Positions 9,440 through 39,677 are shown, counted from the first letter of the stretch. The stretch is 39,677 bases of DNA from an uncultured Methanosarcinales archaeon (GCA_964630685.1 CAZVVW010000009.1:1-39677), one strand, 5' to 3'. The notes: generated from the sequence alone by a model not told the origin. Translations and numbers: made by a program.

Positions 9440-9835
9440 ATGGAAAAAGAACAACAAAACCAAAATCAAATGCAACTTCAAATGATTGCTCAACAAATAG
9501 GTCAGATGCAAAACCAGTTAAAAATGGTCGAAGAACAATTAAATGAGTTAATAATAATCAAACAAGGATTAAATGATTTAGAAAAATTAAAAAAAGGAGA
9601 TGAAATTCTTACTCCGTTAAGTAATGGAATATTTATAAAATCAAAATTAGAAGACAACAAAAATTTAATAGTTAATGTGGGTGGAAATACCACAGCAAAA
9701 AAAACAATACCTGAAGTAAGAAAAATGTCAGATAAACAAATGGACGAATTAAAAAAAGTGCAGACAAATTTATTGACAGAGCTCCAAGGATTAAATTTAC
9801 AAGCAAATTATTTTGAAAAAAAATTAAAGGGTTAG
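9440..9835 (+). CDS. pfdA: Prefoldin subunit alpha
   Basis: Coiled coil - EILTPLSNGIFI...IVNVGGN - coiled coil; directly upstream of ftsY as in many archaea. Confidence 0.92.
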   Translation: MEKEQQNQNQMQLQMIAQQIGQMQNQLKMVEEQLNELIIIKQGLNDLEKLKKGDEILTPLSNGIFIKSKLEDNKNLIVNVGGNTTAKKTIPEVRKMSDKQMDELKKVQTNLLTELQGLNLQANYFEKKLKG

Positions 9836-9842
9836 GTGTTTT

Positions 9843-11177: not shown

Positions 11178-11195
11178 ATTATTGGAGGTATCAAC

Positions 11196-11540
11196 ATGTT
11201 TGGATTTGGAAAACCTTGGTTAAAAAGAAAGTTTAAGGACAATACTGTTTTTGAAATGAAAATAGATTACATAATAAAACATCTTGACAAACCAGATAAA
11301 AAGAAAGTAGAAGGAAAAGTTTCTTTTTTTCACCAAGAAGATTGGCAAAACAAAAAAGAGCAAAAAATCCATAAAGCATTAGATTCTGGAAAAAAACACT
11401 CAAAGTTTGACCCGATTAGATTAGCACTTCACACAAAAAAAGAACAATTTAGAGTGGGTGATGGAATCTCAAGATTAAGAGCATTCAAAAAAAAAGAGAT
11501 AGAGAAAATAAAAGTAGAACTATGTATAGGTGAATGGTGA
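11196..11540 (+). CDS. Small ParB/sulfiredoxin N-terminal-like domain protein
   Basis: GGAGGT SD; DPIRL...FRVGDGISRLRAF...KIKV fits the P-I-x(n)-DGxxR-x-A pattern. Confidence 0.55.
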   Translation: MFGFGKPWLKRKFKDNTVFEMKIDYIIKHLDKPDKKKVEGKVSFFHQEDWQNKKEQKIHKALDSGKKHSKFDPIRLALHTKKEQFRVGDGISRLRAFKKKEIEKIKVELCIGEW

Positions 11541-11545
11541 TATTG

Positions 11546-12220
11546 TTATTGCCCACCATCTTCAGAGTAACTAATTTTTTGGTTGTAATAAATCCCTTTT
11601 CTTAATTTAACAGGTCTCCAATTATCAATCACTAATTCAGCATCCATCCAATCAGCCAGCTCTTGGGGGTTTCCTATTGTAGCACTTAATCCAATAAACT
11701 GTGCATCCAACATCTGTTTAAGTATTGTAAGCAGAATCTCTAAAGTTGGACCTCTGCCAGGATCGTTAAGTAAGTGAATCTCATCAATTACCACAACGTT
11801 TATATCTTCTATCCAGTTAGATTTATGCCTTATCAAAGAGTCTAGTTTCTCAGAAGTTGTTATAATCAAATTATGTTTATATAACCCCTTATCTGAAGAA
11901 TCTAAATCCCCAATAGACAGTGCAACTTTAATTAGTCCATCATATTTTTTCTTAAAATCTTTATATTTTTCAGATGCAAGTGCTTTTAATGGAACAATAT
12001 AAACAGCTTTCCCTCCTTTCTCCATCAATTGTTTTAACATAGCCATTTCAGCAATAAGTGTTTTTCCAGAAGCAGTTGGAGTGCACACAAGCAGGTTTTC
12101 CCCTTTAAATAAACTTTTCTTAATCGCTTTTTCTTGAGAAGGACGCAATTTACCTATATCTTTACTCAAGATTTCATAAACTTCTTTAGGTAACTCTTTT
12201 TTTATGTCTTTTAGATTCAT
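11546..12220 (-). CDS. Hel308/Ski2-like SF2 helicase, N-terminal RecA domain only
   Basis: LRPSQ, PTASGKT, VPLKALA, DEIH, LSAT, WRPV, then stop at 224 aa; motifs IV-VI are absent. Confidence 0.88.
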   Translation of the reverse strand: MNLKDIKKELPKEVYEILSKDIGKLRPSQEKAIKKSLFKGENLLVCTPTASGKTLIAEMAMLKQLMEKGGKAVYIVPLKALASEKYKDFKKKYDGLIKVALSIGDLDSSDKGLYKHNLIITTSEKLDSLIRHKSNWIEDINVVVIDEIHLLNDPGRGPTLEILLTILKQMLDAQFIGLSATIGNPQELADWMDAELVIDNWRPVKLRKGIYYNQKISYSEDGGQ

Positions 12221-12292
12221 AAACTCCTAATAATTTCAAAACTTTAAAATCTTTCCTAAAAATTTATATATCTAAAAGATAATCAAACAACC

Positions 12293-12880
12293 ATGGCAAA
12301 AAAAGAGGTTTATCACATCTATCTATTTAGGCATGGCCAAACTTATTATAACAGAAACCATTATTTTACAGGTTGGAAGGATTCTAAAATAACATCTCAA
12401 GGAATTAAAGATGCTAAAAAAGTCGCCAAAAAATTAAAAAACAAAAAAATAGATATTGCGTATCATTCACATCTTTCTCGTTCAAAAGACACACTCAAAC
12501 AAGTTTTAAAATTTCATCCAGAATGTAAAAAGAAGATTTGTGATGACAGAATCATTGAGAGGTGTTATGGAAAATTGCAAGGATTTGGTCATAGTTCAAT
12601 AATAAAAAAATATGGCCAAAAACAATTTGATATCTGGCATCGTTCTTATGATATTTCTCCACCTAAGGGAGAGAGTGTTAAGATGGTTGAAAAAAGAGTT
12701 AACGCGTTCATAAAAGAACTGATAAAAAAAATAAAAAAAGAAAAAATAAATGTAGCTATTTCTGCACATGGAAATTCTATGCGCCCTTTTAGAAAATATT
12801 TTGAAAAACTCAACATTAAACAAATGATGAAATTAGAAAATCCCTGGGACGATTACTTTGAGTATAAGATAAAAATTTAA
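12293..12880 (+). CDS. gpmA: Cofactor-dependent phosphoglycerate mutase / histidine phosphatase
   Basis: RHGQT..N...FTGW.D, ERCYG.LQG, PPKGES, AHGNSMR. Confidence 0.85.
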   Translation: MAKKEVYHIYLFRHGQTYYNRNHYFTGWKDSKITSQGIKDAKKVAKKLKNKKIDIAYHSHLSRSKDTLKQVLKFHPECKKKICDDRIIERCYGKLQGFGHSSIIKKYGQKQFDIWHRSYDISPPKGESVKMVEKRVNAFIKELIKKIKKEKINVAISAHGNSMRPFRKYFEKLNIKQMMKLENPWDDYFEYKIKI

Positions 12881-13209
12881 TCATCAAATTGAGCTCTACT
12901 TAAATAAGCTTTTGACAGATATTCTTCTTTTTTTACAGGCTTGCCATAACTAGAATCATAAATTAATCCTTCATTTTCAACCACAAAATGATGACTCCAA
13001 CTATGGACATCAACTTTTGTTGGTAGCAACATTCCACCTTCAACAGGAATCACTTTTCTTAATTTTGCTTCAAGGCCCTCATCTTTCATAACCACAAAAA
13101 GAGAATTAGCCCGAGTATAACATCCATGACTATTATGAACTTCTGTATCATATTTTTTTGCTTCTTTAACCATTAGTTCAAAATAATTTTCAAATCCCAT
13201 AAGAACCAC
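12877..13209 (-). CDS. Putative papain/transglutaminase-fold Cys-His-Asp enzyme resembling protein-glutaminase (start may be ATG 13200)
   Basis: GCYTRAN...WSHHFVV...IYDSS motifs in catalytic-triad order. Confidence 0.6.
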   Translation of the reverse strand: MVLMGFENYFELMVKEAKKYDTEVHNSHGCYTRANSLFVVMKDEGLEAKLRKVIPVEGGMLLPTKVDVHSWSHHFVVENEGLIYDSSYGKPVKKEEYLSKAYLSRAQFDD

Positions 13210-13302
13210 TTTTTACTAGCAATATAAAAAAGTTTCTATAAAAAAATAGAAAAAGAAGGAGAACGAATCCCCTTAATTTTTCAAAAAAAAACAAAAAATG
13301 AC

Positions 13303-13656
13303 TTAAGCTTTTGCTAAGTCATATACATCTTTAAGAGCTACTACCACAACAGCAGGAATAACAAATACCATTACAGCATCGAAAATTCCTCCTAAATATG
13401 GACCAATAAATGCAACACTTGTTAAGGTTGATGATGCTCCTCCCATGTAACTTGCAATAACCAATACGATTGCCGCAAATATAAACTTCTCAGCTTGCTT
13501 TCCTGCAATATTCAAGAATCCTACAATTAATCCAAATAAGATTAAAAGAGAAACAAGCCAAGCTTGGAGGCCACCTAATGATGCGCCTATAAGTCCTAAA
13601 ATTACTGCTAGTATTACTCCCAAAATGAATGCCCACTTTCCTAATATGTCTTTCAT
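13303..13656 (-). CDS. Small multi-pass membrane protein of unknown function
   Basis: About 4 hydrophobic helices; GAGGTG SD; upstream TATA (GAAACCTTTATATAG on the minus strand). Confidence 0.8.
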   Translation of the reverse strand: MKDILGKWAFILGVILAVILGLIGASLGGLQAWLVSLLILFGLIVGFLNIAGKQAEKFIFAAIVLVIASYMGGASSTLTSVAFIGPYLGGIFDAVMVFVIPAVVVVALKDVYDLAKA

Positions 13657-13783
13657 CTTGTGTAATCACCTCTCACTATTATGTAAGACTTAAATTTTAT
13701 TAATGAGTGAATTCTATATAAAGGTTTCTAAAATTTATAATAATCTAAAAGTAGTAAAAACAATAAAGAAATAAAAAATAATT

Positions 13784-15223
13784 TTAAATATTTAATGTAG
13801 AACCATTGGAATGTGAAATAATTATTTTTCCTTTAGAACTCTTAAATTTAATCACAGCAGGACTTAATTTCAATGACCCCAAAATACTCAATTTAGATTT
13901 GATTTTGTAGGTTATCATCCTTTCTTCAAACCCTTCAAGGATATCAATATTCCATTTTAATAAAGTTCCTTTAATATCATGAGTCATTACTTTAGTAGGT
14001 TTTAAAGTTCCTAAATAATCTTCTTTAACTAAATTAGCAATATTAGGTATTTTTTCTATAACCCTTATATTTTCATTTTTGCTTTTGGTTCTGTTTTTGA
14101 TATTGAGGGTTACTTTGATTTTTGAAATTCCCCCTTCTTCAATTTCTAACACTTCAGCTTTTTTCTTTATAATCACAGGGCTTCTTGTCAAGAAATATAA
14201 AATCACAACAATAATCAAAATTATACTTAATGCAAATAGAGATCTAAAATTTTCAGTGTAATTAATTTCTATTTTTTGAGATGGCTCAAGTACTAATTCC
14301 CACACAAGATATTTTTTTCCATCTTCTGTAAGTAGTTTAGTTTTAGGTTCTGTACTGGTAAATAAACTCTTAAACCAGTCAGTAGGTATTTTGTATAATT
14401 TAGAACCTTGAGTATTTCCATCATTTAAGATAACAACTTTTGTTTTTGTTTTCAAAAACTCTTTTTGAGTTATTATAGTACTAACAAAAGCAGAATAACC
14501 AATAATTTCAATATTCTCCCTATCAGGTGTAAAAATAGTATCACCTGTTGAAACAGTTGCAATTAACACATCTTCCATGGGATCTGTTACAGGACTCAAA
14601 GTTATAACAAAAGTTTCAGTTCTTTCTTCCAAAGGACTTAAAGAAACTATTCTTTTTTTGTGAATTAATCCACTATTAGTAGTTAGGTCGATCGTAACTT
14701 CCTCTAAATCTAAAATATTAACATTTTTTAAATTTACTTTTACAGTAAATTTACCTCTAGGATCTATTTTGATTGGATCAACAAGCATAGTTGTAATTAC
14801 AAAAGGTAAATAATCCTGCATTTCTAGTCCAGTAGATCCGATATAAACAGTAACATCTTCACTATCTATATCACCAGTTGATTGTATAGTTGCAATCACA
14901 GGCAATTTTTTTGGACCTGCAGAAATTCGATTTGGTGGTGTAAGATAAAGTATAGTTGAATCAGAAGATTGAGCTGGAACCATCATTCCACTAAAATAAT
15001 CTGATAAAGGGCTAGACATCAAATCCCATAGCACATCAGTGCTAAATTTGAATACTTGTTCTGTATCCATATGGTTTTCTATAGTAACATTAAAACTAGC
15101 ACTTTCATTTTTAAAAATCCTATCATCAATAGGGTCAACAGAAACATGAAAATCTCCTGCCAAAACAATTGGAACTAAGAAAAGTATTATTGCAATGAGT
15201 AATGTTTTATGTTTCATCTCCAA
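13784..15223 (-). CDS. Secreted, membrane-anchored beta-sandwich (Ig-like) repeat protein
   Basis: Signal peptide ending in VLA; several V/T-rich beta domains; internal TM (LFALSIILIIVVILYFL); a further basic beta domain after the TM. Confidence 0.7.
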   Translation of the reverse strand: MEMKHKTLLIAIILFLVPIVLAGDFHVSVDPIDDRIFKNESASFNVTIENHMDTEQVFKFSTDVLWDLMSSPLSDYFSGMMVPAQSSDSTILYLTPPNRISAGPKKLPVIATIQSTGDIDSEDVTVYIGSTGLEMQDYLPFVITTMLVDPIKIDPRGKFTVKVNLKNVNILDLEEVTIDLTTNSGLIHKKRIVSLSPLEERTETFVITLSPVTDPMEDVLIATVSTGDTIFTPDRENIEIIGYSAFVSTIITQKEFLKTKTKVVILNDGNTQGSKLYKIPTDWFKSLFTSTEPKTKLLTEDGKKYLVWELVLEPSQKIEINYTENFRSLFALSIILIIVVILYFLTRSPVIIKKKAEVLEIEEGGISKIKVTLNIKNRTKSKNENIRVIEKIPNIANLVKEDYLGTLKPTKVMTHDIKGTLLKWNIDILEGFEERMITYKIKSKLSILGSLKLSPAVIKFKSSKGKIIISHSNGSTLNI

Positions 15224-15295
15224 CCACCTTTTATATTACTTTTTACTTATACTCAATAATATATAAACTTTCCTTTTTTATAGAGTGATATAAAG

Positions 15296-15416
15296 TGGGG
15301 CTGCCGTGATTTGAACACGGGTTACTAGCTGTCCATGTCATAGTAAGGAAATATAAGGTATCTCCCTCTCCATGAACCCCGAGCTAGTGTCATAGACCAG
15401 GCTAAACCACAGCCCC
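15296..15416 (-). tRNA. tRNA-Pro with a 46-nt intron (15331-15376); anticodon GGG in the best register, CGG in an alternative
   Basis: Acceptor stem GGGGCTG/CAGCCCC-A, D loop AGCCTGGTCTA, anticodon stem CTAGC/GCTAG, T arm CCGTG-TTCAAAT-CACGG; the intron forms a hairpin; CCA is not encoded. Confidence 0.88.
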
Positions 15417-17861
15417 TTAAACAATTGTACTTAGGTGTTCATTTTTACTCACTCTTAAAACTTTCTCAACAAAACTCTCTATTTTGCTTTCATGACTCAC
15501 GATTATGGTTTGTTTTATTTCTAATTGTTCAAGTACATCACGCATCTTATCCAATTGTTCTGTTGAAAACCCATCTGTTGGTTCATCTAAAATTATTATA
15601 TCTTTTGTTTTTATGGTTTCAACAACATCATTTATCACTTTATTCAATGCCAGCCGATAAGCCAAAGCTAAAGCAGTTTTCTCCCCACCAGATAGATTAT
15701 TAATATCAGTTTCATATCCGTTTTGTTCAATAACTGGTCTGAATTCGTCATCTAACTGAGCATTCAGCTCTTCATCTTCAAGAAGAATATCAAACCATTT
15801 TGTAAATAACCCATTGAATTCTGTATACACTTTAAGCATAACTTGTTTCTCCATTTTTACCATTAAATCCATAAAATTATCATCAAGCCAACTATTTAAC
15901 TCTTTTAATTTTTTAATGCCTTCTTTAGTTTTTAATTTCTCACCTATTTCTTTTTTTAAGTCATCTTTCAATCTCTCAATACCTTCAACCTCTTTGTCCA
16001 ATACAGCCGATTTAACCTCTAATTCTTTTTCTTCTTTCACTAATTCAGCAAGTATAAATCTTTCTTTATCATAAGTTTCTTTTACACTTTCAAGGCCATG
16101 AATTTTCTTTCTTAATTCAATCTTTTTAACATTGATTTTACCCACATCTTTCTTTATACTATCTTGTAATTTGATTAAGGTTTCAGCTCTTTTCTTTTTA
16201 TCTTCAAGAATTCTTTTTAGATTATTTTTCTCACGAACTCCACCCAACAATTGCTTCAATTCATTAACTTCTTTAACTCTTTCTTCAAGATTTATCTGGC
16301 TCAATTCATTAATTCTTCCTTCAAATTCAATTCTATCTTTCACAGCCAAAGCAACCCTTTTTTGTTTTTCAATCAAACTTTCACCAATTTCTTTGAGTGA
16401 TTTAATTTCTACACCAAGTTCAAAATATCTTTTTTCTTTTTCAAGCACATTTTCTAATTTTTTCTTTAACCTATCATATCTTTCAGAAAACTCATTTTTA
16501 TTAGCATTCAAAACCTTTATAGCATCCATGCCTGTAGAGATATTTTTATCTTCTAATTGTTTTATGTGTTCTTTGTGTTCAGAAGAAACAGATTGTTTAC
16601 AAAGGGGGCAATTACTTAAGCTAATCACTTTTTCTTTTAACTCTTTTGAATTTCCAATGTTGATTTCTGCTTTACTTAATCTTGTATTTATATTTTCAAT
16701 TTCTTTTTCAATCAACAATATTTTTTTATTTAATTCTCCTTTTACAGCTATTTCGCATTTAAGTTCTTTTAATTTTTCTTCTTTGGCAACCAAATCTTTT
16801 GTTAATTCAGATTTATTTTTTATTTCTAAATTTAATTCATCCGCCATTTTTATAACCACTTTTAATTTTTCGTTCAAAACAGCTTTTTCTTCTCTAATTC
16901 TATTTACTTCAGAAATTCTTTTTTCAATATCTTTAGAAATCGTATTTTCTTCAACATCTTTTATTTGTAATTTATTTATTTTTTCAATCAACTGTTCAAC
17001 TTCTTTTTCAACAACAATTAATTCCTTTTTATTTCCAGAATCTTGAGTTATTTTTTCAATCAATTTAGTGTTCTCAACTTCAAAAGAGCTACTCAATTCA
17101 TTAAACTTTTTGACATCTCCTTCAATCCTTTCAACCTTCTTTTTTCCTTCAACAACTCTCTTTTTACTTGTTTCCAGTAATGGTTTAACTTCTTTAATTT
17201 TGGATTTTAATTCCACCAGTTCATTAGTTCTTCTTCTTTCACGATTTATTTTTTCATCTAAATCAAATATTTGAGCATTCAACTCCCGTACCCTCTGTTT
17301 AATTTTTCTATTAAGGATAATTGTGTTCTCTCTAATCCGTTTATATTTGTCTATCTGGAAAACTTTTCTGAGCGTATCCAATCTTTGTTCAGCATCTTCT
17401 AATAAGATCCTTTTCATCTCATCCTGGGGAGTATAAACAGTATAACGATATATCAGAGACTTGCTTTTTGATAAAAGTTCCTTTGGATATTGTAGAATAT
17501 CAAGAATCCATGCTTTTAGTTCAACAGCAGTGCCGTGTTTTTTTTCGCCATCAATCACAATATACCCAGAATCTTGTTGAACACCTCCCTTTCCTCTTTT
17601 CAGCACTCTTTTTATTGTAACTCTTTTTTTACCTACTTTTATATCTAATTCAACAGAACCTTCTTTAGTTCCATGTCTCAATAGAGAAGAACCACTCACA
17701 GAACCTCTCATCAAACCAAATAAAGCAAATTCAATTGCCAGAAGGATTGTAGATTTTCCACTACCAACATCTCCCCAGAGCAGTACAGAACCACTAGGAA
17801 AAGAAATCTTCTGCTCTTTATAGCTACGAATATTCTTTAATTCCACCCACCTAATAATCAT
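15417..17861 (-). CDS. rad50: Rad50/SbcC-type SMC-family ATPase
   Basis: NIRSY, GDVGSGKST Walker A, long coiled coil with central CPLC zinc hook, LSGGE signature, ILDEPT, VSH. Confidence 0.9.
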   Translation of the reverse strand: MIIRWVELKNIRSYKEQKISFPSGSVLLWGDVGSGKSTILLAIEFALFGLMRGSVSGSSLLRHGTKEGSVELDIKVGKKRVTIKRVLKRGKGGVQQDSGYIVIDGEKKHGTAVELKAWILDILQYPKELLSKSKSLIYRYTVYTPQDEMKRILLEDAEQRLDTLRKVFQIDKYKRIRENTIILNRKIKQRVRELNAQIFDLDEKINRERRRTNELVELKSKIKEVKPLLETSKKRVVEGKKKVERIEGDVKKFNELSSSFEVENTKLIEKITQDSGNKKELIVVEKEVEQLIEKINKLQIKDVEENTISKDIEKRISEVNRIREEKAVLNEKLKVVIKMADELNLEIKNKSELTKDLVAKEEKLKELKCEIAVKGELNKKILLIEKEIENINTRLSKAEINIGNSKELKEKVISLSNCPLCKQSVSSEHKEHIKQLEDKNISTGMDAIKVLNANKNEFSERYDRLKKKLENVLEKEKRYFELGVEIKSLKEIGESLIEKQKRVALAVKDRIEFEGRINELSQINLEERVKEVNELKQLLGGVREKNNLKRILEDKKKRAETLIKLQDSIKKDVGKINVKKIELRKKIHGLESVKETYDKERFILAELVKEEKELEVKSAVLDKEVEGIERLKDDLKKEIGEKLKTKEGIKKLKELNSWLDDNFMDLMVKMEKQVMLKVYTEFNGLFTKWFDILLEDEELNAQLDDEFRPVIEQNGYETDINNLSGGEKTALALAYRLALNKVINDVVETIKTKDIIILDEPTDGFSTEQLDKMRDVLEQLEIKQTIIVSHESKIESFVEKVLRVSKNEHLSTIV

Positions 17862-17960
17862 ATTAAAATAAATAGTATTAAGATTTAAAAGGTTTTATGT
17901 GCTTTAAAATATAATCTAGAATTATTTAAATCCTTTTATTCTATTTGATTCTATTTTATT

Positions 17961-18842
17961 CTATTTAACTAAAGCAGCAGCACCAATTATTCCAGCATTC
18001 TTACCTAATCTGCCTTTTACAATATTTACCTTGTTTAGTGCACGTTTTTTTACTTCATCTTTTAATGAATGAGAGAAAAAGCCCCATGCCCCAGAAATTC
18101 CTCCGCCAAGAATAATTTTATCAGGATCAAAAGCATTCACAAGATTAGTAATAGATATTCCCAAATAAATTCCCATTTCCCTAAAAAGATGTATGGCACT
18201 CGGATTTTTCTTTAAAGCAAGATTATAGATATCGATTGGTTCTTCAACTCTCATCCCAAATGACTCTGCCAATCTCATCAACCCACGCCTGGAAACATAC
18301 TCTTCAATACATCCATCGTTTCCACAGCTGGCAATCATCCCATTTAATTTAATAGTCATATGCCCAAGTTCTCCTGCATTTCCTTTACCATGGTATAATT
18401 CTTTATTGATGATTATTCCACCACCAACACCTGAACCCAGAGTAATTCCAACAAGATTTTTACACTCTTTTCCAGCACCAAACAACGCTTCACCAAGAAT
18501 AAAACAGTTAGCATCATTATTCAACACAACTTGAGTTCTAAATCTTTTTTTAATTGTTTCTTTGATATTAACTCCTTTTAATGGAAGATTTAGAGTATCT
18601 CCAATCACCCCAGTACTATGATTCAAAGGACTCGGACAACCCACGCCAATAGGGGGTATTTTTTTGAATTTTTTAGATTTAACAATAAGAGATATAGCTT
18701 TTAGAATATTTTCAATAACAACGGCTTTGCCTTGTTCTGCTTCTGTTAACACAACAACTTTTTTCAGCACCTTTCCCTTACTATTTATCAAACCAGCTTT
18801 AATTTCAGTGCCACCTATATCCACCCCTATTTTTAGTAGCAT
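17961..18842 (-). CDS. ROK family sugar kinase (glucokinase-like)
   Basis: GVDIGGT, NNDANC, GSGVGGG, GELGH, CGNDGCIE; no HTH domain. Confidence 0.92.
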   Translation of the reverse strand: MLLKIGVDIGGTEIKAGLINSKGKVLKKVVVLTEAEQGKAVVIENILKAISLIVKSKKFKKIPPIGVGCPSPLNHSTGVIGDTLNLPLKGVNIKETIKKRFRTQVVLNNDANCFILGEALFGAGKECKNLVGITLGSGVGGGIIINKELYHGKGNAGELGHMTIKLNGMIASCGNDGCIEEYVSRRGLMRLAESFGMRVEEPIDIYNLALKKNPSAIHLFREMGIYLGISITNLVNAFDPDKIILGGGISGAWGFFSHSLKDEVKKRALNKVNIVKGRLGKNAGIIGAAALVK

Positions 18843-18850
18843 ATAATGTT

Positions 18851-20056
18851 CTAAAGAACTTCTCCCATAAAAATGTTGTGTTTTGTTCTTATGATTTTTA
18901 CTTTGACATTTCCTTTCTTATCACATTCAGGCAAGGTAATAACTCTATCTTTTGCAACAGCTATTTTTTCGCCAGGAATCCTTCCTTCACAAACTATTCT
19001 CACCCTAACAATCTCATCTTTTTTGAAAGGTTTTGGTAATTCATCAACTTTAGTTATCTTGAAATCATTTTCATCTAAGATTAATCTTGTGTTGTATTTT
19101 TTTTCTAATTCTCTTAATTTCTCATGGAATTCTGGCCATGGAATAGATTTGGCGGGATTTTTTCCAAACCTATATCTTAAAAAATTCTGGAAACCGACTT
19201 TTATTGGAGCATCTTTTCCAGCACCAATATCCAACGCAAAATCCATTATTGATTCCATTTCTTTATCATTTATTCCAAATATAATTACTGGAGTTATCAT
19301 AACTCCAATTTTTTTTGCGGCATATCTTGCCATGTTTTGCGCATGTTTAGCATTATAATTTTTGCCACCAATCTCTTTAGCTAATTCTGGATTAATTGCA
19401 TTAATCGAATAATTTAATCTCACTTTCTTGAGTTTTGCTAATTCATCTACTATATTTTTAGTTAATAAAGTACCATTAGTATCAATAGAAACAAGTTTTA
19501 TATTGTTTAGTTTAATTAAGTCCGAGATTAACTCAACAATTTCGCTGTAAAGAAAGGGTTCCCCTTGTCCACCAATATGGGCCTCAATTTCACAATTTTT
19601 AAACTCAACCAATTTCCTAAATTCTTCTATTAAATATTCTCTTTCAATAACAATATCTTTAGTTCTTTTATCCTGATTTACAGAACAATAGATGCAATCA
19701 AGATTACATCCACTTATTGGTTTTAGTTCAATAAGGTTTGTTCCCCTATCTACAATCCCAAAAGAATTACTCCCCATCAAAGGAATTCTAGAATTCTTAT
19801 GGATATAGATTGTATTTTTTTTAGTTAAGTCGTTTTTTAGATTATCTATATGGCTTGCAATTATAAAATCAAACTTCTTTATTACTCTACTTTCTTTTAC
19901 ATTTTTGAACTCAATTTCATGTTTTTTTACCTTAAATGGTCCAATATCTTGTAATATTTTTTTATCTACCTTAAACGAAAAAAGTTTATAGAGACTCACA
20001 ACTACGTGTTCTTTTTCTTCTCTAAAACTTAAACTTTCAAATTTTAATATTGCCAT
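18851..20056 (-). CDS. Archaeal radical SAM protein with C-terminal TRAM-like domain
   Basis: FGIVDRGTN, CNLDCIYC, GQGEP, DTNG; C-terminal beta domain ending RTKHNIFMG. Confidence 0.85.
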   Translation of the reverse strand: MAILKFESLSFREEKEHVVVSLYKLFSFKVDKKILQDIGPFKVKKHEIEFKNVKESRVIKKFDFIIASHIDNLKNDLTKKNTIYIHKNSRIPLMGSNSFGIVDRGTNLIELKPISGCNLDCIYCSVNQDKRTKDIVIEREYLIEEFRKLVEFKNCEIEAHIGGQGEPFLYSEIVELISDLIKLNNIKLVSIDTNGTLLTKNIVDELAKLKKVRLNYSINAINPELAKEIGGKNYNAKHAQNMARYAAKKIGVMITPVIIFGINDKEMESIMDFALDIGAGKDAPIKVGFQNFLRYRFGKNPAKSIPWPEFHEKLRELEKKYNTRLILDENDFKITKVDELPKPFKKDEIVRVRIVCEGRIPGEKIAVAKDRVITLPECDKKGNVKVKIIRTKHNIFMGEVL

Positions 20057-20145
20057 ATTGTTAAATTATTAAGGTACAGCTTAAATACTTTATGAAAATG
20101 TTTATATAGGACTCGGTTTTAATGCTTTAAGTTGGGGTAATTATT

Positions 20146-20934
20146 ATGTCAGATAAAGAAATTAATATCACTTATGAAACTCTTTTTGAATTCTCTCAAA
20201 GAGAAAAAAGTAGAGAAGAACTTCAAGATTTGGGAGACTCTTTTTATGAAGATGTGATTCATTATGTTGGGGAAAAAGTCAAGATTTTGCAAAAAGACCA
20301 AGGCACTCTAGATACCTTTTCAGAAGAAGAAAAAGAAAAAACTAGATCTCAATTAAGTAATATTAAAAGAATTCTTACTCAACTTTATGAAAGGAGAGAA
20401 AAAAAAATAATCAATATGGCGATCCATAAATCAAGAGAGCCAGCAACATTAGTTGATGAATCAGTTATGCTTAAACATGAAAGTGAAATGTATAATCATT
20501 TTACTAATTTATTAAATCAATACAGGGATGAAGTGTTATTGAATCTTTTGAGTGCAAAACCAAAAGAGCAAATTCAAGAAGCGCAAACACAACAAGAATC
20601 AGCACCTGCGCAAGAAGAAAAACCAAGAGAAGAGCAAGCTCTTCACGAAGTACAAGAAACAGAAGAACATCAAGAACCACAATCAACCCCTAAACAATCA
20701 TCTGAATCTGCAGAAAGTTTAGAATCTAAACAAGAAGAATCACAATCAGAACAGAAAGATTCTTCTGAAAAGAGCCAAAAAGAAACAAAAAGAATTAAAT
20801 TTACACATTACGTTCCTAAATTCCTTGGAAGGGAGATGGAAGTGTATGGCCCATTTGAGCCAGAAGATATAGCAACACTTCCAACAGAATTAGCTAAAAT
20901 TCTAATAATTAAAGGAAGAGCAGAAGGGATATAA
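20146..20934 (+). CDS. DNA replication complex GINS subunit Gins15 (Gins51)
   Basis: Helical A domain (ELQDL..SFYE...RREKKII..A) and C-terminal B domain (FLG...YGPF..EDIATLP..A.ILI..GRA); conserved position upstream of rpl44e. Confidence 0.85.
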   Translation: MSDKEINITYETLFEFSQREKSREELQDLGDSFYEDVIHYVGEKVKILQKDQGTLDTFSEEEKEKTRSQLSNIKRILTQLYERREKKIINMAIHKSREPATLVDESVMLKHESEMYNHFTNLLNQYRDEVLLNLLSAKPKEQIQEAQTQQESAPAQEEKPREEQALHEVQETEEHQEPQSTPKQSSESAESLESKQEESQSEQKDSSEKSQKETKRIKFTHYVPKFLGREMEVYGPFEPEDIATLPTELAKILIIKGRAEGI

Positions 20935-32596: not shown

Positions 32597-33550
32597 ATGT
32601 CAATACTAATAAGCTATCTAACAACAAAATGTAACTTTCGTTGTAAACATTGTATGAGAGATTTTTCTAAAGATAGAGATGTAGATATAAAAATATTAGA
32701 AAAAGCAATTATTGGAGCAAAAGAAAGAGGAATAAATACAATATCATTAACTGGTGGAGAACCAATACTACATGAAAGTTTTGAAAAAATATTAGAAATG
32801 ATAAATAAACATAATTTCCTATACTCTATCGTAACAAATGGGTCTAATACTAAGAAATATATAGAAATAATAAAAAAATATCCTGGATTTACTTCATTCT
32901 CATTTAGTTTAGATGGGTCAACACCTGAAATAAATGATATAATCAGAATGAAAGGATCTTATAATTTTGTTATGGAGTCAATTGAATTATGTAAAGAAAA
33001 TAATTTACCATTTGTTATAGCCAGTACAATTGGAACAAAAAATTTTGACGATCTTAAGAATATTATATCAGTTGCTAAAGAAAAAAATGCTTCTTGTTTA
33101 GTATTATCAACTGTCTTAGGAAATCCTAACGCCAAATCAAATAATATGGTTCTAGATTGGAAAAAGAGAGAGAAATTATTTAAGAAAGCAAAAAAATTAG
33201 TTAAAAAGAATAAAGACTTCCCAATATATCCTGGATCTCCAATTGGAACCGAAGATGGAATTAATCCAAGATTATGCGGTGTTATGAATCTGAATTTCAT
33301 AACACTAGATGTTGATGGGAACATAAATTTCTGTTGTAATCTTGCAGACTATAGTACCGAGAATGGAGCATCAAAAGAACCAATTATTGCTTCATTAAAT
33401 GAATTAACATTTTCAGAAGCGATTGAAGAATACAAAAAAAGGACTATATCTTTTTTAAAAGATAGACCTGATGACTATTCTGAATTCGAAGGAAATAAAA
33501 TAAATTATAATAGTTGTTTTTATTGCTTAAAAAAATTTAACCTAGATTAA
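32597..33550 (+). CDS. Radical SAM protein with twitch/SPASM-like C-terminal cysteines
   Basis: CNFRCKHC, TGGEP, TNG, SLDG; LCG...DGNINFCC...CFYC. Confidence 0.88.
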   Translation: MSILISYLTTKCNFRCKHCMRDFSKDRDVDIKILEKAIIGAKERGINTISLTGGEPILHESFEKILEMINKHNFLYSIVTNGSNTKKYIEIIKKYPGFTSFSFSLDGSTPEINDIIRMKGSYNFVMESIELCKENNLPFVIASTIGTKNFDDLKNIISVAKEKNASCLVLSTVLGNPNAKSNNMVLDWKKREKLFKKAKKLVKKNKDFPIYPGSPIGTEDGINPRLCGVMNLNFITLDVDGNINFCCNLADYSTENGASKEPIIASLNELTFSEAIEEYKKRTISFLKDRPDDYSEFEGNKINYNSCFYCLKKFNLD

Positions 33551-33551
33551 A

Positions 33552-34586
33552 ATGTATAAACCAACAGCACTTTCATTATATCTGACACAATATTGTCCAC
33601 TTAAATGCAAATATTGTATTTTCGGAACTCAAGAAAAACAACATATGCCAAAAGAATATGCAATTAAAAGAATAAGAGAAGCAAAAGAACTAAAAGTTTC
33701 ACATGTCGTTTTTACAGGTGGAGAACCAACACTTCATCCAGACTTTTTAGAAATATTCAAAGAAATAAAAAATCAGAATATGAGTGTGTTACTTGTAACA
33801 AATGGAATTCCAATCAAAGAAGAAATACTAAAAGAAGTTACAGATTACGAACAATCAACATTTTATTTCTCACTAGATTGTCATGATAAAAAAATAAATG
33901 ACAAGTATAGAGATGAGAAATCGTTTGATTACGTTGTAAAAACTATTGAAAAAATAAGAGACATAAATTCAAATAAATTTATTGGTGTAAACAGTATTCT
34001 GCTTAAGGAAACTTTAGAACAATTACCTAAAACTACAGAATTCATATTAAATGAATTAAAGGCCAACACATTAAGTGTTGAAAGAGTAATTAGAGTTGGA
34101 AATTCCGAAAAAATACCTGATGAATGGATAATAAAAGATATGAAAGACTATTTCAAAACAATAGAAGAACTTAAACAAAAATATCAAGATAGATTTAGGT
34201 GTTATACTTGTGATTTACATAGTTGCCTTCTTGATAATCTCCATTCATTTAATATACTTGCATTTCCCGATAAAAAGATATATCTCTGTTGCAATTTACC
34301 TGACAAAAGATTAAAAATAGGTGACGAAAATAATTCTTTAAAAGATATATTAAAAGAAGAAAATATAAAAAAAACAGCAAAACTTTTTAACAAATGTTTT
34401 TTCAAAAATCAAACCAATATAAGGACTAAAAAAGGGATATTTGGATGTGTAGAATGTGTAGAAGAATATAAAAAACTAAGAGATTCAGGAGAACTGGATA
34501 ATATAATTAAATTATCTAAACAACCAAGATTAAAAGAAAAATTAAAACAAAAAGCATACGGGTTTATTGATAGAATATTGGGATAG
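33552..34586 (+). CDS. Radical SAM protein with twitch/SPASM-like C-terminal cysteines
   Basis: CPLKCKYC, TGGEP, TNG, SLD; CYTCDLHSC...IYLCC...CVEC. Confidence 0.88.
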   Translation: MYKPTALSLYLTQYCPLKCKYCIFGTQEKQHMPKEYAIKRIREAKELKVSHVVFTGGEPTLHPDFLEIFKEIKNQNMSVLLVTNGIPIKEEILKEVTDYEQSTFYFSLDCHDKKINDKYRDEKSFDYVVKTIEKIRDINSNKFIGVNSILLKETLEQLPKTTEFILNELKANTLSVERVIRVGNSEKIPDEWIIKDMKDYFKTIEELKQKYQDRFRCYTCDLHSCLLDNLHSFNILAFPDKKIYLCCNLPDKRLKIGDENNSLKDILKEENIKKTAKLFNKCFFKNQTNIRTKKGIFGCVECVEEYKKLRDSGELDNIIKLSKQPRLKEKLKQKAYGFIDRILG

Positions 34587-34903: not shown

Positions 34904-35066
34904 ACTATCTTTAATAAGTAAGTTCTACAAAAATTATTTAAACTTCTATTATTAATTTACTTTTATACCAAAAGATTTTTTATCTTTTTGTATAACTTCA
35001 AGACACAGTCTCTAAGACTTTGCAAAAAACAAAGCCCTGAAGATTTAATTTATTAAATCTTCTTGA

Positions 35067-35668
35067 TAAAAACAGGTGTTTTATGTTGAGCATAAAGAAA
35101 CTACTATTTATTTTACCAATTTTATTTACCATTCCTTCAGCTTTAGCTGTAGAATTGCCAGATGTTTCTGGTTTAATTGGGAGTATTGGTTCCAATGTTT
35201 GGAACATGCTCCAAAATGACATGACTGTTTTCTTTTTCACATTCATATTCTTCTTTATCTTACTTTATGGAATATACGCAGCAGCATTAAGAAAAGTAAA
35301 GGTATTTTCAGAAGGAGATACTCTAAACAGACAAGGAAAATTAGTTGCAGTAGCATTTGCAATGCTTTCTTCTTTTGCAATCTTTTTTGTAACAAGAGAG
35401 CAAGGAATAAGAGCCTTTCTCAACAATATTTTAGAACCATTAGGATTATTTGCAGGAGTTCTTTTAGGAATTACAGTTTTTTCAATTATTTACTTTGGAT
35501 TTAGAAACCCTTCAGGAGAAAAGAACTGGAAAGCAGCAATGGCTGCAGCAGGTTTAGGTATGATTGTCGCTGGAATGATAACTGACAGCCCAGGAGCTGT
35601 ATCTTGGGGATGGTTATTAATAATAATTGCAGCAATCTTTGCTTTAATAGGATTGTTTGGCGGTGGAA
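35067..35668 (+). repeat. 602-bp direct repeat, copy 1
   Basis: No difference found by eye versus 38775-39376 (offset 3708); covers the SD and first 195 codons. Confidence 0.95.
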
Positions 35669-36123
35669 TACCTGGAAGAAGGAGTCCACCTCCACCACCT
35701 CCACCACCCCCACCACAAGAAAATCAAGATGATCAGATAACAGCACATCTAAACCAAATAGATTCTATATTAGTCAATTTACAAAATAATTACAATGATT
35801 TAATCATAGCATGCGACGAAATACTTCAAACAAACCACGATTACCATTCAGGATTTGTTGGTTCAGCTCCAGCTCCAGGAACTCATCCACCGACTGCAAC
35901 CCAATGGGGTAGAGCATTAGATGACTACAGAAATTTTATCCATTTATCAGATAGGATAAATCAATTATTTGATGAAATAGCAAATTTATCAAGCCCAGAA
36001 AGGGAAGATTTGCGTAATCGTTTACAACAGACTCTTTCAAATTTTAGAAGTTTAATCAATAATTTTTCAAATTATGATAATGATTTTAGGGTAAGATTGA
36101 ATTCAAATCAACCACCAGCATAA
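35083..36123 (+). CDS. Signal peptide + about 5-TM membrane module, poly-Pro linker, helical C-terminal domain
   Basis: PSALA|VE cleavage-like site, five hydrophobic segments, GGG hinge, P10 tract, N/Q/D-rich amphipathic helices. Confidence 0.85.
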   Translation: MLSIKKLLFILPILFTIPSALAVELPDVSGLIGSIGSNVWNMLQNDMTVFFFTFIFFFILLYGIYAAALRKVKVFSEGDTLNRQGKLVAVAFAMLSSFAIFFVTREQGIRAFLNNILEPLGLFAGVLLGITVFSIIYFGFRNPSGEKNWKAAMAAAGLGMIVAGMITDSPGAVSWGWLLIIIAAIFALIGLFGGGIPGRRSPPPPPPPPPPQENQDDQITAHLNQIDSILVNLQNNYNDLIIACDEILQTNHDYHSGFVGSAPAPGTHPPTATQWGRALDDYRNFIHLSDRINQLFDEIANLSSPEREDLRNRLQQTLSNFRSLINNFSNYDNDFRVRLNSNQPPA

Positions 36124-36125
36124 AA

Positions 36126-38309
36126 ATGGAAAAAAGTGAAATAGAATTAAGAAAAGAATTTTTAGATATGATTAATCAAAATCAGGGAAACAGAATCATA
36201 TCTAATTTTACAGAAATATTATTAAATATGATGCAGAGAGGAATAATGGCTGATTATGACTTAAATTCTTTAATTCAAGGATTAAACACCCAAGCGATAA
36301 GTTTATCCCATTCACATAAAAGAAGCTTATTAACTAATACTAAAAAAAGATTTGAAGAGTCTCGTGAACGAAAAAAATATCTAGAAAAAAAATTAAAAGA
36401 AATTAACAAGGGTAATACGATTTTAAATCTTAAAACAAATCTTATAAATATAAAACAATTTTTTGAAACCATAGATAATTTCTTTTGGGAAAAAAAAGAA
36501 CACCTAAATAAAAAACAACTAATTAAACTAAATGAAACTCTTTTAGATCTTTTAACATATTTAAGAGATGCAGTAGATTTACTTGAATACTTAAAATCAG
36601 ATAAACTCAATGAACAAGATTTAGCAAAATTAAAGAATTACCAAACACACATAAGTCAATGTATCAAAATAATAAATAAACTAATCGATCAATCAGAAAA
36701 TTTAATTTATTTATTAGATAAAAAACATAAAGAAACATTGAATAAACAAGAGGGAGATTATCTTTTAGATAAAAAAGTTATATTGTATTTATTAAATTTA
36801 ATGGATATCATCATAAAAACATTAGATTATTTTGATGAAACAAATCCTCAAGGAATATCTCAGTTCTTTCAATCTAATATACATATTTCAATTAATAGGG
36901 AAGGGGAATTAATGCAATTATTAAAGAATTTTGAAAAAGAACTAAGAGTATTCCAGTCTCATAAAAGTAATTATAATGTAACTAGAATCACACCTTTGAT
37001 ATATAGTTCAATACATAAACATAATGTTTCTTTGTTTTTTCAAGCAGGAGAAAAATCAGGTTTAAGAGTTACATATGGATTAATACTCAATGGACTTAAA
37101 AAAAGAAATCTTTCTGTTTACAGGATAGCAATAGCAGAAAATTCTAATATTTCACTAAGTGACGCTTTAATTATTCCAAAATCAGATATGGGTAGTGTGA
37201 TTAGGGAATTAAATAACAACATAACAGATAAAAACTATAAACAAATTGAACCAATAATATTAGATTATGTTAGATCCCAACATATATCTAAACAAATAAT
37301 CCTTTTACCCCCTTATTTTTGGAAATTCTTCGAATTTTCCTTAAGTAGCGAAACAAAGAGAATTAAAACATTTCTCTCTTTTGGTCCGGGCAGTATAAGT
37401 AAAGAAGAAGTATCTTGGGAATATTTAGATGGGTTAAAATCAAAAGTTAATTTTTTTGCTAGAAGTCAATTGGCTAAAAAAGGGTTACTGCAAAAAGGAA
37501 TACCAAGAAATAAAATAACTTTAACCACTAATATGTTTAATGAAAACCTGTTAAGAGGGATAACTTTATTGGATAAAGAAGTCCTTAAACAAAAATATTT
37601 TAAAGAAAAATATAAACAGGGAATGGTAGTATTCTCCACTATAGGAAGGATCTCTGGAGAAAAAAACCTTCAAAGCGTATTCTCTGCAATGAAAGATTTT
37701 ATCAAAGAAAAAGAAGATGTATATTTTTTGATTATAGGAGATGTGTTGGGAATAGAATCAGAAGGGATAAAACCTATTTTAGATGATATGTTAAAAGATC
37801 CAATTTGTGCTGAAAAAATAGTTCAAATAAAAGAAGTAGAGCATAAAGAAGCATTAGAATCAATTTATATGTCAGATGTTACATTTGCAGTTTCAGGAAG
37901 AGAAGCATGTAACACCCTTACAATAGAAGCATTGGCCTTAGGGACTTTACCCATAGTATTAAATGCATCAACCTTTCCAGGATTATTTATTGATATTCCT
38001 AAATATGTCAAAGTAGAAAACACAAGATCAGAAATAGCACACGAAGATTCTTATTATGATTCTAGAGGAACAAGTAAAATTCCAAACATAGACGAAACAG
38101 GATATTATAGAATCAATCCAGGTAGAAAATATTGGAGAATATACATTCCAGATTTGGATAGTTTGAAATATCAAATAAAAGAATCATACAACCTATCTAA
38201 GGATACTAAGAAATATCAACGTTGGACAAGGAGATCAATAGAATATGCTTGGCATAATTTTGCTTCCAACAAAGTGCTTAACAAAATCACAAAAGAATTA
38301 GACAAATAA
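36126..38309 (+). CDS. Long helical/coiled-coil N-terminus fused to a GT4 (GT-B) glycosyltransferase domain
   Basis: IGRISGEKNL, FLIIGD, EACNTLTIEALALG (EX7E); first about 280 aa are L/K/E/N-rich; starts 2 nt after the upstream stop. Confidence 0.8.
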   Translation: MEKSEIELRKEFLDMINQNQGNRIISNFTEILLNMMQRGIMADYDLNSLIQGLNTQAISLSHSHKRSLLTNTKKRFEESRERKKYLEKKLKEINKGNTILNLKTNLINIKQFFETIDNFFWEKKEHLNKKQLIKLNETLLDLLTYLRDAVDLLEYLKSDKLNEQDLAKLKNYQTHISQCIKIINKLIDQSENLIYLLDKKHKETLNKQEGDYLLDKKVILYLLNLMDIIIKTLDYFDETNPQGISQFFQSNIHISINREGELMQLLKNFEKELRVFQSHKSNYNVTRITPLIYSSIHKHNVSLFFQAGEKSGLRVTYGLILNGLKKRNLSVYRIAIAENSNISLSDALIIPKSDMGSVIRELNNNITDKNYKQIEPIILDYVRSQHISKQIILLPPYFWKFFEFSLSSETKRIKTFLSFGPGSISKEEVSWEYLDGLKSKVNFFARSQLAKKGLLQKGIPRNKITLTTNMFNENLLRGITLLDKEVLKQKYFKEKYKQGMVVFSTIGRISGEKNLQSVFSAMKDFIKEKEDVYFLIIGDVLGIESEGIKPILDDMLKDPICAEKIVQIKEVEHKEALESIYMSDVTFAVSGREACNTLTIEALALGTLPIVLNASTFPGLFIDIPKYVKVENTRSEIAHEDSYYDSRGTSKIPNIDETGYYRINPGRKYWRIYIPDLDSLKYQIKESYNLSKDTKKYQRWTRRSIEYAWHNFASNKVLNKITKELDK

Positions 38310-38319
38310 ATCAATTCCT

Positions 38320-38670
38320 TCAATAATTTTTAATAATTATTTGTTCTTCTTCAGTTCTATTTCCCCCACCTTCATCCCATATATCTGCATCAATAATATT
38401 GAGAATTTTTTCTAGATTAATAAAATTGTTACTCCCATAAATTTTTTCTTCAGATATGGAGTCTTTATTTTTATCATAAACAGATATAAATTGTTCTCCT
38501 TTATAATCACAATTTCCCATTTCACCAACTCGGTTAACACTTTCTTTTATTTCATAGAGTAATTTATTAGACTTAAATATCTCATAAGAACTAATGTACT
38601 TGCTATCATAATATTCAGAATACAATCTATACATAGATGCTTCCAGCCCTTCTAATTTATTATAATCCAT
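38320..38670 (-). CDS. Small hypothetical protein (ATG 38670 preferred)
   Basis: Fills the intergenic space; GAAAGTTTTATTAAA BRE/TATA about 25 nt upstream of ATG 38670; no motif recognised. Confidence 0.5.
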   Translation of the reverse strand: MDYNKLEGLEASMYRLYSEYYDSKYISSYEIFKSNKLLYEIKESVNRVGEMGNCDYKGEQFISVYDKNKDSISEEKIYGSNNFINLEKILNIIDADIWDEGGGNRTEEEQIIIKNY

Positions 38671-38774
38671 TTTATTAATACTCAAATTCTTCAAATTTAA
38701 TAAAACTTTCTACAAACTCTTTTAATTAGGAGGTATACAGAAAACTATTTAAACTTTGATTATTCTTTAACTCT

Positions 38775-39376
38775 TAAAAACAGGTGTTTTATGTTGAGCA
38801 TAAAGAAACTACTATTTATTTTACCAATTTTATTTACCATTCCTTCAGCTTTAGCTGTAGAATTGCCAGATGTTTCTGGTTTAATTGGGAGTATTGGTTC
38901 CAATGTTTGGAACATGCTCCAAAATGACATGACTGTTTTCTTTTTCACATTCATATTCTTCTTTATCTTACTTTATGGAATATACGCAGCAGCATTAAGA
39001 AAAGTAAAGGTATTTTCAGAAGGAGATACTCTAAACAGACAAGGAAAATTAGTTGCAGTAGCATTTGCAATGCTTTCTTCTTTTGCAATCTTTTTTGTAA
39101 CAAGAGAGCAAGGAATAAGAGCCTTTCTCAACAATATTTTAGAACCATTAGGATTATTTGCAGGAGTTCTTTTAGGAATTACAGTTTTTTCAATTATTTA
39201 CTTTGGATTTAGAAACCCTTCAGGAGAAAAGAACTGGAAAGCAGCAATGGCTGCAGCAGGTTTAGGTATGATTGTCGCTGGAATGATAACTGACAGCCCA
39301 GGAGCTGTATCTTGGGGATGGTTATTAATAATAATTGCAGCAATCTTTGCTTTAATAGGATTGTTTGGCGGTGGAA
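38775..39376 (+). repeat. 602-bp direct repeat, copy 2
   Basis: Matches 35067-35668; diverges right after GGCGGTGGAA. Confidence 0.95.
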
Positions 39377-39677
39377 GACGTCCAGGACCTACCCCAACAA
39401 CTCCTACAACTCCTACGACTCCACCCCTACCACCAGGAAGTACAAGAGTTCATGGAATCGCCAGAGGTCTAAGAAGGGGAAGGCTTCGTAGACGAATACG
39501 TTTAGCAAATGTAAATATTACAATAGATGGATCAAACACCATAACTAATAATAGGGGGAAATACGAAATAAATGTATCTCAAGGCAATCACATTTTAACA
39601 GCTAATTTGACTGGTCATACAACCTATAATAGTCCACCATTAAACATTACTGGAAGAAGGCACAGACATAATTTTGT
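38791..39677 (+). CDS. Second copy of the membrane module, PT-rich linker, carboxypeptidase-regulatory-like beta-sandwich; runs off the window (not in the ORF track)
   Basis: Same first 195 aa as 35083, then RRPGPTPTTPTTPTTPPLPPGSTRVHGIARGLRRGRLRRRIRLANVNITIDGSNTITNNRGKYEINVSQGNHILTANLTGH...; upstream GAAAACTATTTAAAC promoter-like site at 38740-38754. Confidence 0.85.
   Translation, partial: MLSIKKLLFILPILFTIPSALAVELPDVSGLIGSIGSNVWNMLQNDMTVFFFTFIFFFILLYGIYAAALRKVKVFSEGDTLNRQGKLVAVAFAMLSSFAIFFVTREQGIRAFLNNILEPLGLFAGVLLGITVFSIIYFGFRNPSGEKNWKAAMAAAGLGMIVAGMITDSPGAVSWGWLLIIIAAIFALIGLFGGGRRPGPTPTTPTTPTTPPLPPGSTRVHGIARGLRRGRLRRRIRLANVNITIDGSNTITNNRGKYEINVSQGNHILTANLTGHTTYNSPPLNITGRRHRHNF

Follow-up and report, generated by a model that had tools for sequence, protein, structure and literature searches.

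What makes two neighbouring archaeal genes identical to the last base over one membrane-embedded module and unlike each other directly beyond it? The question is raised by genes A and B, which lie near the end of a 39,677-nucleotide (nt) stretch of DNA recorded as coming from an uncultured Methanosarcinales archaeon (GCA_964630685.1, CAZVVW010000009.1), here called the window. Both genes begin with the same 195-amino-acid (aa) N-terminal module (N-module), and each then passes through a glycine hinge and a low-complexity linker into a C-terminal tail of its own. The identity is probably the result of a very recent gene conversion or recombination-mediated duplication within a modular paralogue family, part of an evolutionary shuffling of anchors and tails in which the tails would probably act as cytoplasmic tethers. 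As an event, such recombination between paralogues is of an ordinary kind.

The shared segment is a direct repeat of 602 nt with 0 mismatches (Table 1). Its copies have a start-to-start spacing of 3708 nt and are separated by 3106 nt of unique sequence. The match begins at TAAAAACAGGTGTTTTATG, 16 nt 5' of each ATG (35083 and 38791), and does not extend leftward by even one base. In both copies it ends one base past codon 195 (..LFGGG), and successive 30-nt blocks to the right of it match at 14/30, 14/30, 6/30 and 5/30 positions. Each copy has its own ATG, an AGGTG resembling a ribosome-binding site (RBS) and its own upstream region. Self-BLAST of the whole window and a search of its six-frame translation with an N-module hidden Markov model (HMM) returned only these two copies and no third. 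An earlier note on this DNA had described a mismatch-free 602-bp direct repeat, 3708 bp apart, running from just before the AGGTG to a GGG hinge, and had suggested a count of further copies; the alignment of the copies and the searches of the window bear out this description. Its other structural claims held as well: P10 and PT-rich linkers leading into unlike tails, a coupled GT4 gene and a small convergent gene between the copies (727-aa and 124-aa open reading frames, ORFs), and the absence of transposase, integrase and reverse transcriptase (RT), of which no domain was found among the 41 window ORFs scanned for domain families.

Three genomic loci bearing the module (L001–L003) were found by profile search with alignment A2, all of them in 'Candidatus Woesearchaeota' metagenome-assembled genomes (MAGs), none of which is the genome of the window. 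L001 (JADHVD010000008.1) is syntenic with the window at 77–93% nucleotide identity, with a common order of Lon, exonuclease, TctA, GT2, radical SAM, L35Ae and N-module gene. Its module differs from that of the window at 59 of 432 nt, the codon changes being 33 synonymous and 16 non-synonymous. Against this difference between species, 0 differences in 602 nt correspond to a divergence below about 0.5% and hence to a very recent event. In L002 (JAHWIG010000004.1), TctA and L35Ae are followed by a beta-tailed N-module gene (722 aa), its 333-aa partner, a further and divergent N-module gene, and EF-1alpha. Where downstream sequence is visible, the number of N-module genes per locus is two in the window, two in L002 and three in L003.

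Upstream regions and tails are combined as a mosaic among these relatives. Ahead of window gene A and the L002 gene lies the upstream region up1; window gene B, the L001 gene and that of the family protein P0002 have up2 in this place. The window thus holds up1-N-A and up2-N-B, L001/P0002 hold up2-N-A', and L002 holds up1-N-B', tail A being of the P0002 type and tail B of the L002 type. All four possible pairings are thus present among close relatives, a pattern that requires recombination in or beside the module. A crossover between the two window copies predicts L35Ae-up1-N-B with a beta-tail, which is the arrangement of L002; the expectation that recombination between the copies would delete the 3.7-kb unit is therefore matched by a relative. 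By the reverse route, the window arrangement would arise if a segment bearing up2-N-A entered an up1-N-B chromosome through one crossover. Tandem paralogues elsewhere share 33% (L002) or 35% and 63% (L003) of their amino acids. Given this divergence, continuous concerted evolution is not general to the family, and a general homogenisation of tandem paralogues is not supported by these sequences.

The module heads a broad family. A phmmer search of 1.84 billion cluster representatives (50% identity) gave 216 proteins at E <= 1e-3, of which 120 reached E <= 1e-10, and by this measure of similarity the family comprises at least 216 clusters at 50% identity. Both window copies belong to it, scoring 265–266 bits against family profile A1 (E about 4–5e-81). 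The family signature consists of a KVxVF..NxxGK loop, YFGF and G176, together with a signal peptide and five hydrophobic helices. The 195-aa module heads proteins of 121–2355 aa, with its start over 60 residues away from the N-terminus in just 6 of 152. Tails have a median length of 152 aa and reach at least 100 aa in 99 of the 152. Among 151 representatives, Pfam recognised CarboxypepD_reg (20), fn3 (8), Peptidase_C1 (6) and Big_1 (4) tails; Gamma_PGA_hydro, SLT and collagen repeats each appeared once. The A-type tail, as defined by an HMM built from 9 sequences, occurs in 10 of 152 family proteins and ends in ..NDFxxR(Y/F)xxGxPPAP.

Tail type is at odds with the tree of the anchors. On a maximum-likelihood tree of 153 modules (quick IQ-TREE run with SH-aLRT support only), the starred branches force at least six changes of tail type for A-type tails, at least five for C1 tails and at least seven for the pooled beta-sandwich-type tails (CarboxypepD_reg, fn3, Big_1 and homologues). 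An approximately unbiased (AU) test on a 42-row subset rejected a single clade of modules with A-type tails (difference in log likelihood 534, p = 6e-8). Pairs of proteins place the breakpoint. P0087 (A-type) and P0071 (beta-type) are 64% identical across the module, P0079 (A-type) and P0036 (C1) are 66% identical, and in both pairs similarity ends at the hinge; likewise, L003 genes 1 and 3 share 63% amino acid and 71% nucleotide identity, ending at the ..IGMFG hinge. The product of window gene A and P0002 have modules that are 92% identical and tails that are 31% identical, and the P0002 tail is nearer to those of P0097 (41%) and P0066 (39%) than to window tail A. Taken from sequence comparison, these data indicate that modules and tails have been re-paired at one hinge over evolutionary time. 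Cataloguing the tails on homologous N-modules, a check proposed in the earlier note, thus yielded many types rather than one, as its picture of a constant N-module with interchangeable tails would have it. Its suggestion of gene conversion or very recent shuffling bounded by a domain junction is strengthened by the comparison with L001 and by the same hinge breakpoint in three other pairs.

Hydropathy and AlphaFold2 agree on the layout of the N-module: a cleavable-looking signal peptide (aa 1–22), an amphipathic helix (28–44), a small beta-hairpin in the first loop and five hydrophobic helices (46–69, 83–104, 109–139, 149–167 and 170–193). The AlphaFold2 model, built from 31 sequences, had a mean predicted local distance difference test score (pLDDT) of 88.5 and a predicted template modelling score (pTM) of 0.61. 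Only F75, G85 and G176 are nearly invariant. The lack of conserved polar catalytic residues points to a structural rather than a catalytic role, and the module is most likely a structural membrane anchor or scaffold. It had no match in Pfam or NCBIfam, a profile search against the Protein Data Bank (PDB) gave 0 matches, and Foldseek searches reached a best E of 0.42 against PDB structures and nothing at E <= 0.001 in BFVD. When 31 family members were scanned singly at E <= 1, weak matches were spread over 74 families. DUF2070, weakly matched in 3 of the 31, is a faint lead, and the ESM Atlas neighbours of the module (Nanobdellota clusters at 0.87–0.88) are likewise a lead only. A type IV secretion system pilin (PF18895, VirB2-like) was considered and rejected, at 14.8–15.1 bits against a cut-off of 26.6 and with 1 of the 31 members matching at E <= 1. 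The literature searched, supplementary family tables aside, held no description of the N-module. The proteins form a large, uncurated family of membrane proteins, and its genome matches are only to Woesearchaeota (DPANN) MAGs. Many short-tailed members show recurrent C-terminal motifs, e.g. WYPxIxxI....K(L/M)xGxV... and P.QVxNF(Q/R)GxMxP, and longer beta-tailed members end in ..MIPNSP.P.G.I....G....I.F.

With moderate confidence, simple counts place the tails in the cytoplasm. Mean numbers of lysine plus arginine per segment (152 proteins) were 1.24 in the outside segment after the signal peptide, 2.80 in loop 1, 1.01 in loop 2, 1.42 in loop 3, 0.11 in loop 4 and 2.50 after the fifth hydrophobic helix, a pattern that fits an N-out, five-span, C-in arrangement. 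Members with an inserted N-terminal domain, such as the SLT domain of P0072, combine a signal peptide and a large hydrophilic domain with, still, five hydrophobic segments.

Of six N-module genes that are complete and have their downstream sequence in view, five have a co-directional ORF within 3 nt or less of their end. The exception is the second L002 gene, which is followed by EF-1alpha. The six partners are the window GT4 fusion, the 333-aa protein of L002 and L003 proteins of 210, 854, 627 and 2753 aa, and 6/6 lack an N-terminal hydrophobic segment. In L003 they belong to a co-directional array (2631–20226), in which three N-module genes over about 17.6 kb are each tightly coupled to signal-less ORFs: 210 aa plus 854 aa (papain-like, PKD and helical), 627 aa, and a giant of 2753 aa that has beta-sandwich repeats and is helical at its C-terminus. 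The nucleotide sugars on which GT4 enzymes draw are cytoplasmic. The partners gave no BLASTP match to one another at E <= 0.01, so that 'partner' denotes a positional regularity rather than a conserved family. Of the dedicated partner genes suggested in the earlier note, the position therefore stands (five of six coupled) and a shared similarity does not, the only relative of the GT4 fusion being that protein itself.

We propose that genes A and B are neighbouring paralogues in which an anchor of ~195 aa would be joined by a low-complexity hinge to a variable tail, and that the 602-bp identity would be the footprint of very recent homologous recombination. Either the module of one paralogue was gene-converted by that of the other, or a 3.7-kb unit (N-module, tail A, GT4 gene, small ORF and up2) may have been inserted or duplicated via a crossover inside the module. 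On either route the end of homology at the RBS and the hinge would set the limits of the tract. Earlier rounds of this process, their products since diverged, would have repeatedly re-paired modules and tails family-wide. Cytoplasmic tails would then tether or recruit translationally coupled, signal-less partners to the membrane, in this locus the GT4 fusion.

Several points weigh against this proposal. The non-A rows of the 42-row AU subset were picked after the large tree had been seen. The A-tail tree lacks resolution, and the AU test leaves the window and P0002 tails acceptable as sisters (p-AU 0.124), so this pair could reflect fast tail divergence instead of replacement. The N-B junction has no independent support, as no B protein was present in a 5.8-billion-protein set in which the 'shorter' lengths were not searched. 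The exact identity of the copies could be overstated via assembly collapse. The anchor or scaffold role is reached by exclusion, from the absence of catalytic residues, and the topology from hydropathy and charge counts. In prokaryotes, CarboxypepD_reg, fn3, Big_1, PKD and papain-like C1 domains mostly lie outside the cytoplasm, and PT-rich linkers are characteristic of exported stalks.

The last of these points bear on extracellular display, which we regard as possible if doubtful. One of the five hydrophobic segments would then not span the membrane, and beta-sandwiches, proteases and helical domains would lie outside for host contact. The tail domains counted among the 151 representatives would suit such a role, as would the PT-rich and G/S-rich linkers and the four N-X-S/T sequons that lie in a short stretch of the visible part of tail B (counted by eye from the translation). 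Passages of Castelle et al. 2021 (PMC8204110) also describe large extracellular SLT-domain proteins (fam00969) in Woesearchaeota and Pacearchaeota, and P0072 joins SLT to the N-module. However, the five hydrophobic segments are consistent throughout, including in members with SLT between the signal peptide and the first helix, and the positive-inside pattern fits a tail-in orientation. Sequons are not enriched in the tails (225 observed vs 227.8 expected, ratio 0.99). The coupled partners, some of which share tail domain types, have no signal peptides, and the GT4 partner is of a cytoplasmic type. A weak, sub-threshold helix-turn-helix-like match in the tail of P0153 also points inward. Taken together, the five segments, the loop charge bias, the signal-less partners and the GT4 enzyme favour cytoplasmic tails and render the display role put forward in the earlier note doubtful.

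The P0153 matches lie at residues 348–383, between two CarboxypepD_reg domains, and fall below cut-off (Sigma70_r4_2, E 1e-3; GerE, E 7e-3). Woesearchaeota are described, in passages of the same paper (PMC8204110), as having sigma-70-like factors without known anti-sigma factors.

An assembly artefact or population mixture, in which the window would be a path X -> R -> unit -> R -> B through a graph loop, is unlikely. The sample would then contain an L35Ae-up1-N-B chromosome plus a separate up2-N-A-GT4-small ORF variant or excised form, or else slightly different copies would have been collapsed. Copy 2 sits 301 nt from the window end, and the window is scaffolded (100 N at 1636–1735). The L001 contig ends inside the module, at nt 450, as expected where a repeat is left unresolved. 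A 3081-nt contig encodes the GT4 protein a second time and comes close in length to the 3106-nt unique segment, as if that assembly had broken at the repeat, and the 'deleted' arrangement exists in nature, in L002. A graph assembler would collapse copies about 99% alike. Any assembly graph would close into a loop at the repeat, so that sequence alone cannot prove the order, how many copies of the 3.7-kb unit there are or that the identity is exact. Against the artefact, all four junctions (up1-N, N-A, up2-N and N-B) are in frame and biologically sensible, and the stretch from the small ORF through up2 into the module is unique contiguous sequence. The N-A junction was found independently in P0001, a protein of another assembly that is 1 aa different from the gene A product. 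An N-module with a beta-tail is a normal architecture in the family, and a 3.7-kb circle without a replication gene would be unlikely to persist. Even the artefact would still need two near-identical modules with unrelated tails in the sample, so that recent recombination still stands.

The features of the locus are collected in Table 1.

Table 1. Coordinates of the repeat, genes and upstream elements, counted from the first base of the window.
Feature	Position	Strand	Description
up1 hairpin/palindrome	34963..34995	+	14-nt arms, 93% complementary; directly past the L35Ae gene
up1 palindrome	35039..35062	+	perfect 11-nt arms, GAAGATTTAAT-TT-ATTAAATCTTC; abuts the repeat and overlaps a TATA-like box
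Repeat copy 1	35067..35668	+	602 nt: RBS-like AGGTG, ATG and codons 1-195 of gene A
Gene A	35083..36123	+	346 aa; signal peptide (aa 1-22), amphipathic helix, five hydrophobic helices, GGG hinge, P10 linker, A-type tail
A-type tail	35725..36102	+	aa 215-340; three-helix bundle (AlphaFold2 model); conserved end motif ..NDF..R....PPA
727-aa ORF	36126..38309	+	unassigned N-terminal ~360 aa, then predicted GT-B/GT4 glycosyltransferase; no hydrophobic segment
124-aa convergent ORF	38320..38694	-	no family match; absent from L001-L003
up2	38695..38774	+	TTTAAA box; shares homology with the sequence that precedes the N-module genes of L001 and P0002, none with up1
Repeat copy 2	38775..39376	+	602 nt, same as copy 1
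Gene B	38791..39675	+	3' end outside the window; same N-module, PT-rich linker, CarboxypepD_reg-like beta-sandwich tail

The window is archaeal, encoding Gins51, aIF2-alpha, L44e, L35Ae, prefoldin and LonB at a G+C content of 30%. In gene A the linker, IPGRRS-P10, follows directly after the hinge, and the tail was modelled at a pLDDT of 91–97. A fold search with tail A returned, as the closest structure, a generic syntaxin-Habc-like bundle below significance (E 0.14), and the ESM Atlas held no match. Tail B, incomplete at the window end, scored 22.1 and 20.9 bits with CarboxypepD_reg-type models against cut-offs of 32.2 and 32.3. The tail of P0153, the 722-aa protein of L002, is a homologue (36% over 81 aa) and passes the Pfam cut-offs as CarboxypepD_reg-like at 37.2 and 40.8 bits.

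The 727-aa ORF starts 2 nt past the gene A stop. Its residues 497–623 matched Glycos_transf_1 (PF00534) at 33.1 bits against a cut-off of 26.4, which identifies a GT4 domain, and residues 361–635 matched a PHROG glycosyltransferase; its C-terminal half is a GT4-type glycosyltransferase by predicted activity. The sole relative of the fusion is P0154, 100% identical and encoded on the 3081-nt contig from another source, and it had no match among PDB sequences. For the 124-aa convergent ORF, PADLOC, PHROGs and Pfam/NCBIfam gave nothing. Rfam found nothing in the window, PADLOC was likewise negative, and PHROGs gave only the glycosyltransferase match.

Both up1 palindromes are kept in the more distant L002 (9920–9950 and 9956–9977) and do not occur upstream of gene B; relative to L002, the window has a 41-nt insertion between them. 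The palindrome next to the repeat is a candidate operator, its regulatory function being deduced from sequence, and the two may represent a terminator plus an operator. If so, paralogues A and B would be regulated differently.

Further observations concern the window and its relatives. Directly after the N gap, a palindromic stretch of ~100 nt (1736–1841) has self-complementary matches of 84–91% identity. A tandem duplication with a ~165-nt period and 76% identity (10008–10341) lies in the N-terminal region of an FtsY-like signal recognition particle receptor gene (9843–11177). Adjacent radical-SAM paralogues (32597–33550 and 33552–34586; Radical_SAM plus Fer4_12) stand beside the GT2 gene, and at their position L001 has a single ORF (8549–9553). 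The second N-module gene of L002 is split in loop 3 into ORFs in different frames (13155–13577 and 13579–14517) that cover profile positions 4–136 and 137–202; a frameshift or pseudogene, an error in sequencing or a module truly built of two pieces may lie behind the split.

A more far-reaching reading, which we consider quite unlikely, is an undescribed Woesearchaeota/DPANN platform in which identical or compatible modules would co-assemble and carry interchangeable tails that dock signal-less cargo encoded directly downstream, such as the GT4 enzyme, the papain-like protease with PKD domains and the 2753-aa giant, for membrane retention or non-classical export towards a host, with recombination at the hinge diversifying the cargo.

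The family is a worthwhile, moderately novel lead and a more useful one than the repeat itself. DPANN archaea depend on other cells, and most of their lineage-specific proteins have no assigned function. What is exposed here is a broad family with a modelled membrane module that has no detectable match among solved structures, with tails re-paired at one hinge and a recurring coupled, signal-less partner. The side of the membrane on which the tails lie, the binding of tails to partners and population variation arising from paralogue recombination are now directly testable.

Very unlikely is programmed cassette or phase variation, in which the cell would regularly swap the expressed tail by recombination between the copies: the constant-N/variable-C design, the exact repeat in direct orientation, the differing upstream regions with palindromes in only one of them and the mosaic combinations among relatives would suit it, but direct repeats only delete or amplify and make a reversible swap impossible, the window holds no promoterless partial cassettes or further copies, inverted repeats are absent from the module, no domain of a recombinase, integrase or RT was found, no toxin-like Pfam domain occurs in the 151 tails scanned and no immunity-like gene lies directly downstream, and the tandem paralogues of L002 and L003 (33–63% identical) are too divergent for ongoing exchange. 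The cassette system suggested in the earlier note is accordingly not supported in its antigenic-variation sense: both copies have a start, an RBS and their own upstream region, and silent copies are lacking.

Known recombining systems differ from this locus in definable ways. In contrast to silent cassettes of the pilE/pilS type, there are two copies only, each with ATG, AGGTG and an upstream region of its own. A shufflon or invertible segment does not fit a direct repeat with no inverted repeats at the module and no recombinase in the 41 ORFs. Nor does a diversity-generating retroelement, there being no RT in the window and a repeat that spans the constant rather than the variable region.

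In the VARTIG module of Thermococcales and in polymorphic toxins, according to Makarova et al. 2021 (PMC8416519), a constant N-terminal part is retained while C-terminal regions are replaced by recombination between genomes. The present family shares a conserved N-terminal part with a variable, recombination-exchanged C-terminal part, as well as variable downstream genes and loci set among ordinary genes. The likeness is one of logic only, and membership is not claimed. No toxin domain was found in the window tails or the 151 representatives, and neither an immunity gene nor orphan cassettes are present, the downstream sequence being the 727-aa GT4 fusion and the convergent small ORF. Instead of an immunoglobulin-like (Ig), RHS or trafficking domain, the constant part is a membrane module of five helices, and the tails are probably cytoplasmic. 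The fam00969 SLT proteins, as far as passages of PMC8204110 describe them, occur in the same lineages, and the family member P0072 (1660 aa) has SLT upstream of its N-module. Unlike them, the window genes have no SLT domain.

Rickettsiales VirB6/TrbL paralogue arrays consist of tandem multi-pass membrane cores with long, variable, hydrophilic C-terminal extensions. The window genes resemble them in having a multi-pass core in tandem genes with large variable extensions. They differ from these arrays and from VirB2 pilins in showing no TrbL/VirB6 match and no secretion ATPase nearby, and the family is a member of neither group. Concerted evolution through gene conversion between tandem paralogues leaves neighbouring, co-oriented genes identical, synonymous sites included, but only across the segment in which they are homologous. 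The repeat described here shares both features. It differs in that the other tandem pairs examined, those of L002 and L003, have not been homogenised, and in that the tract coincides with a whole protein module in a family that re-pairs its tails.

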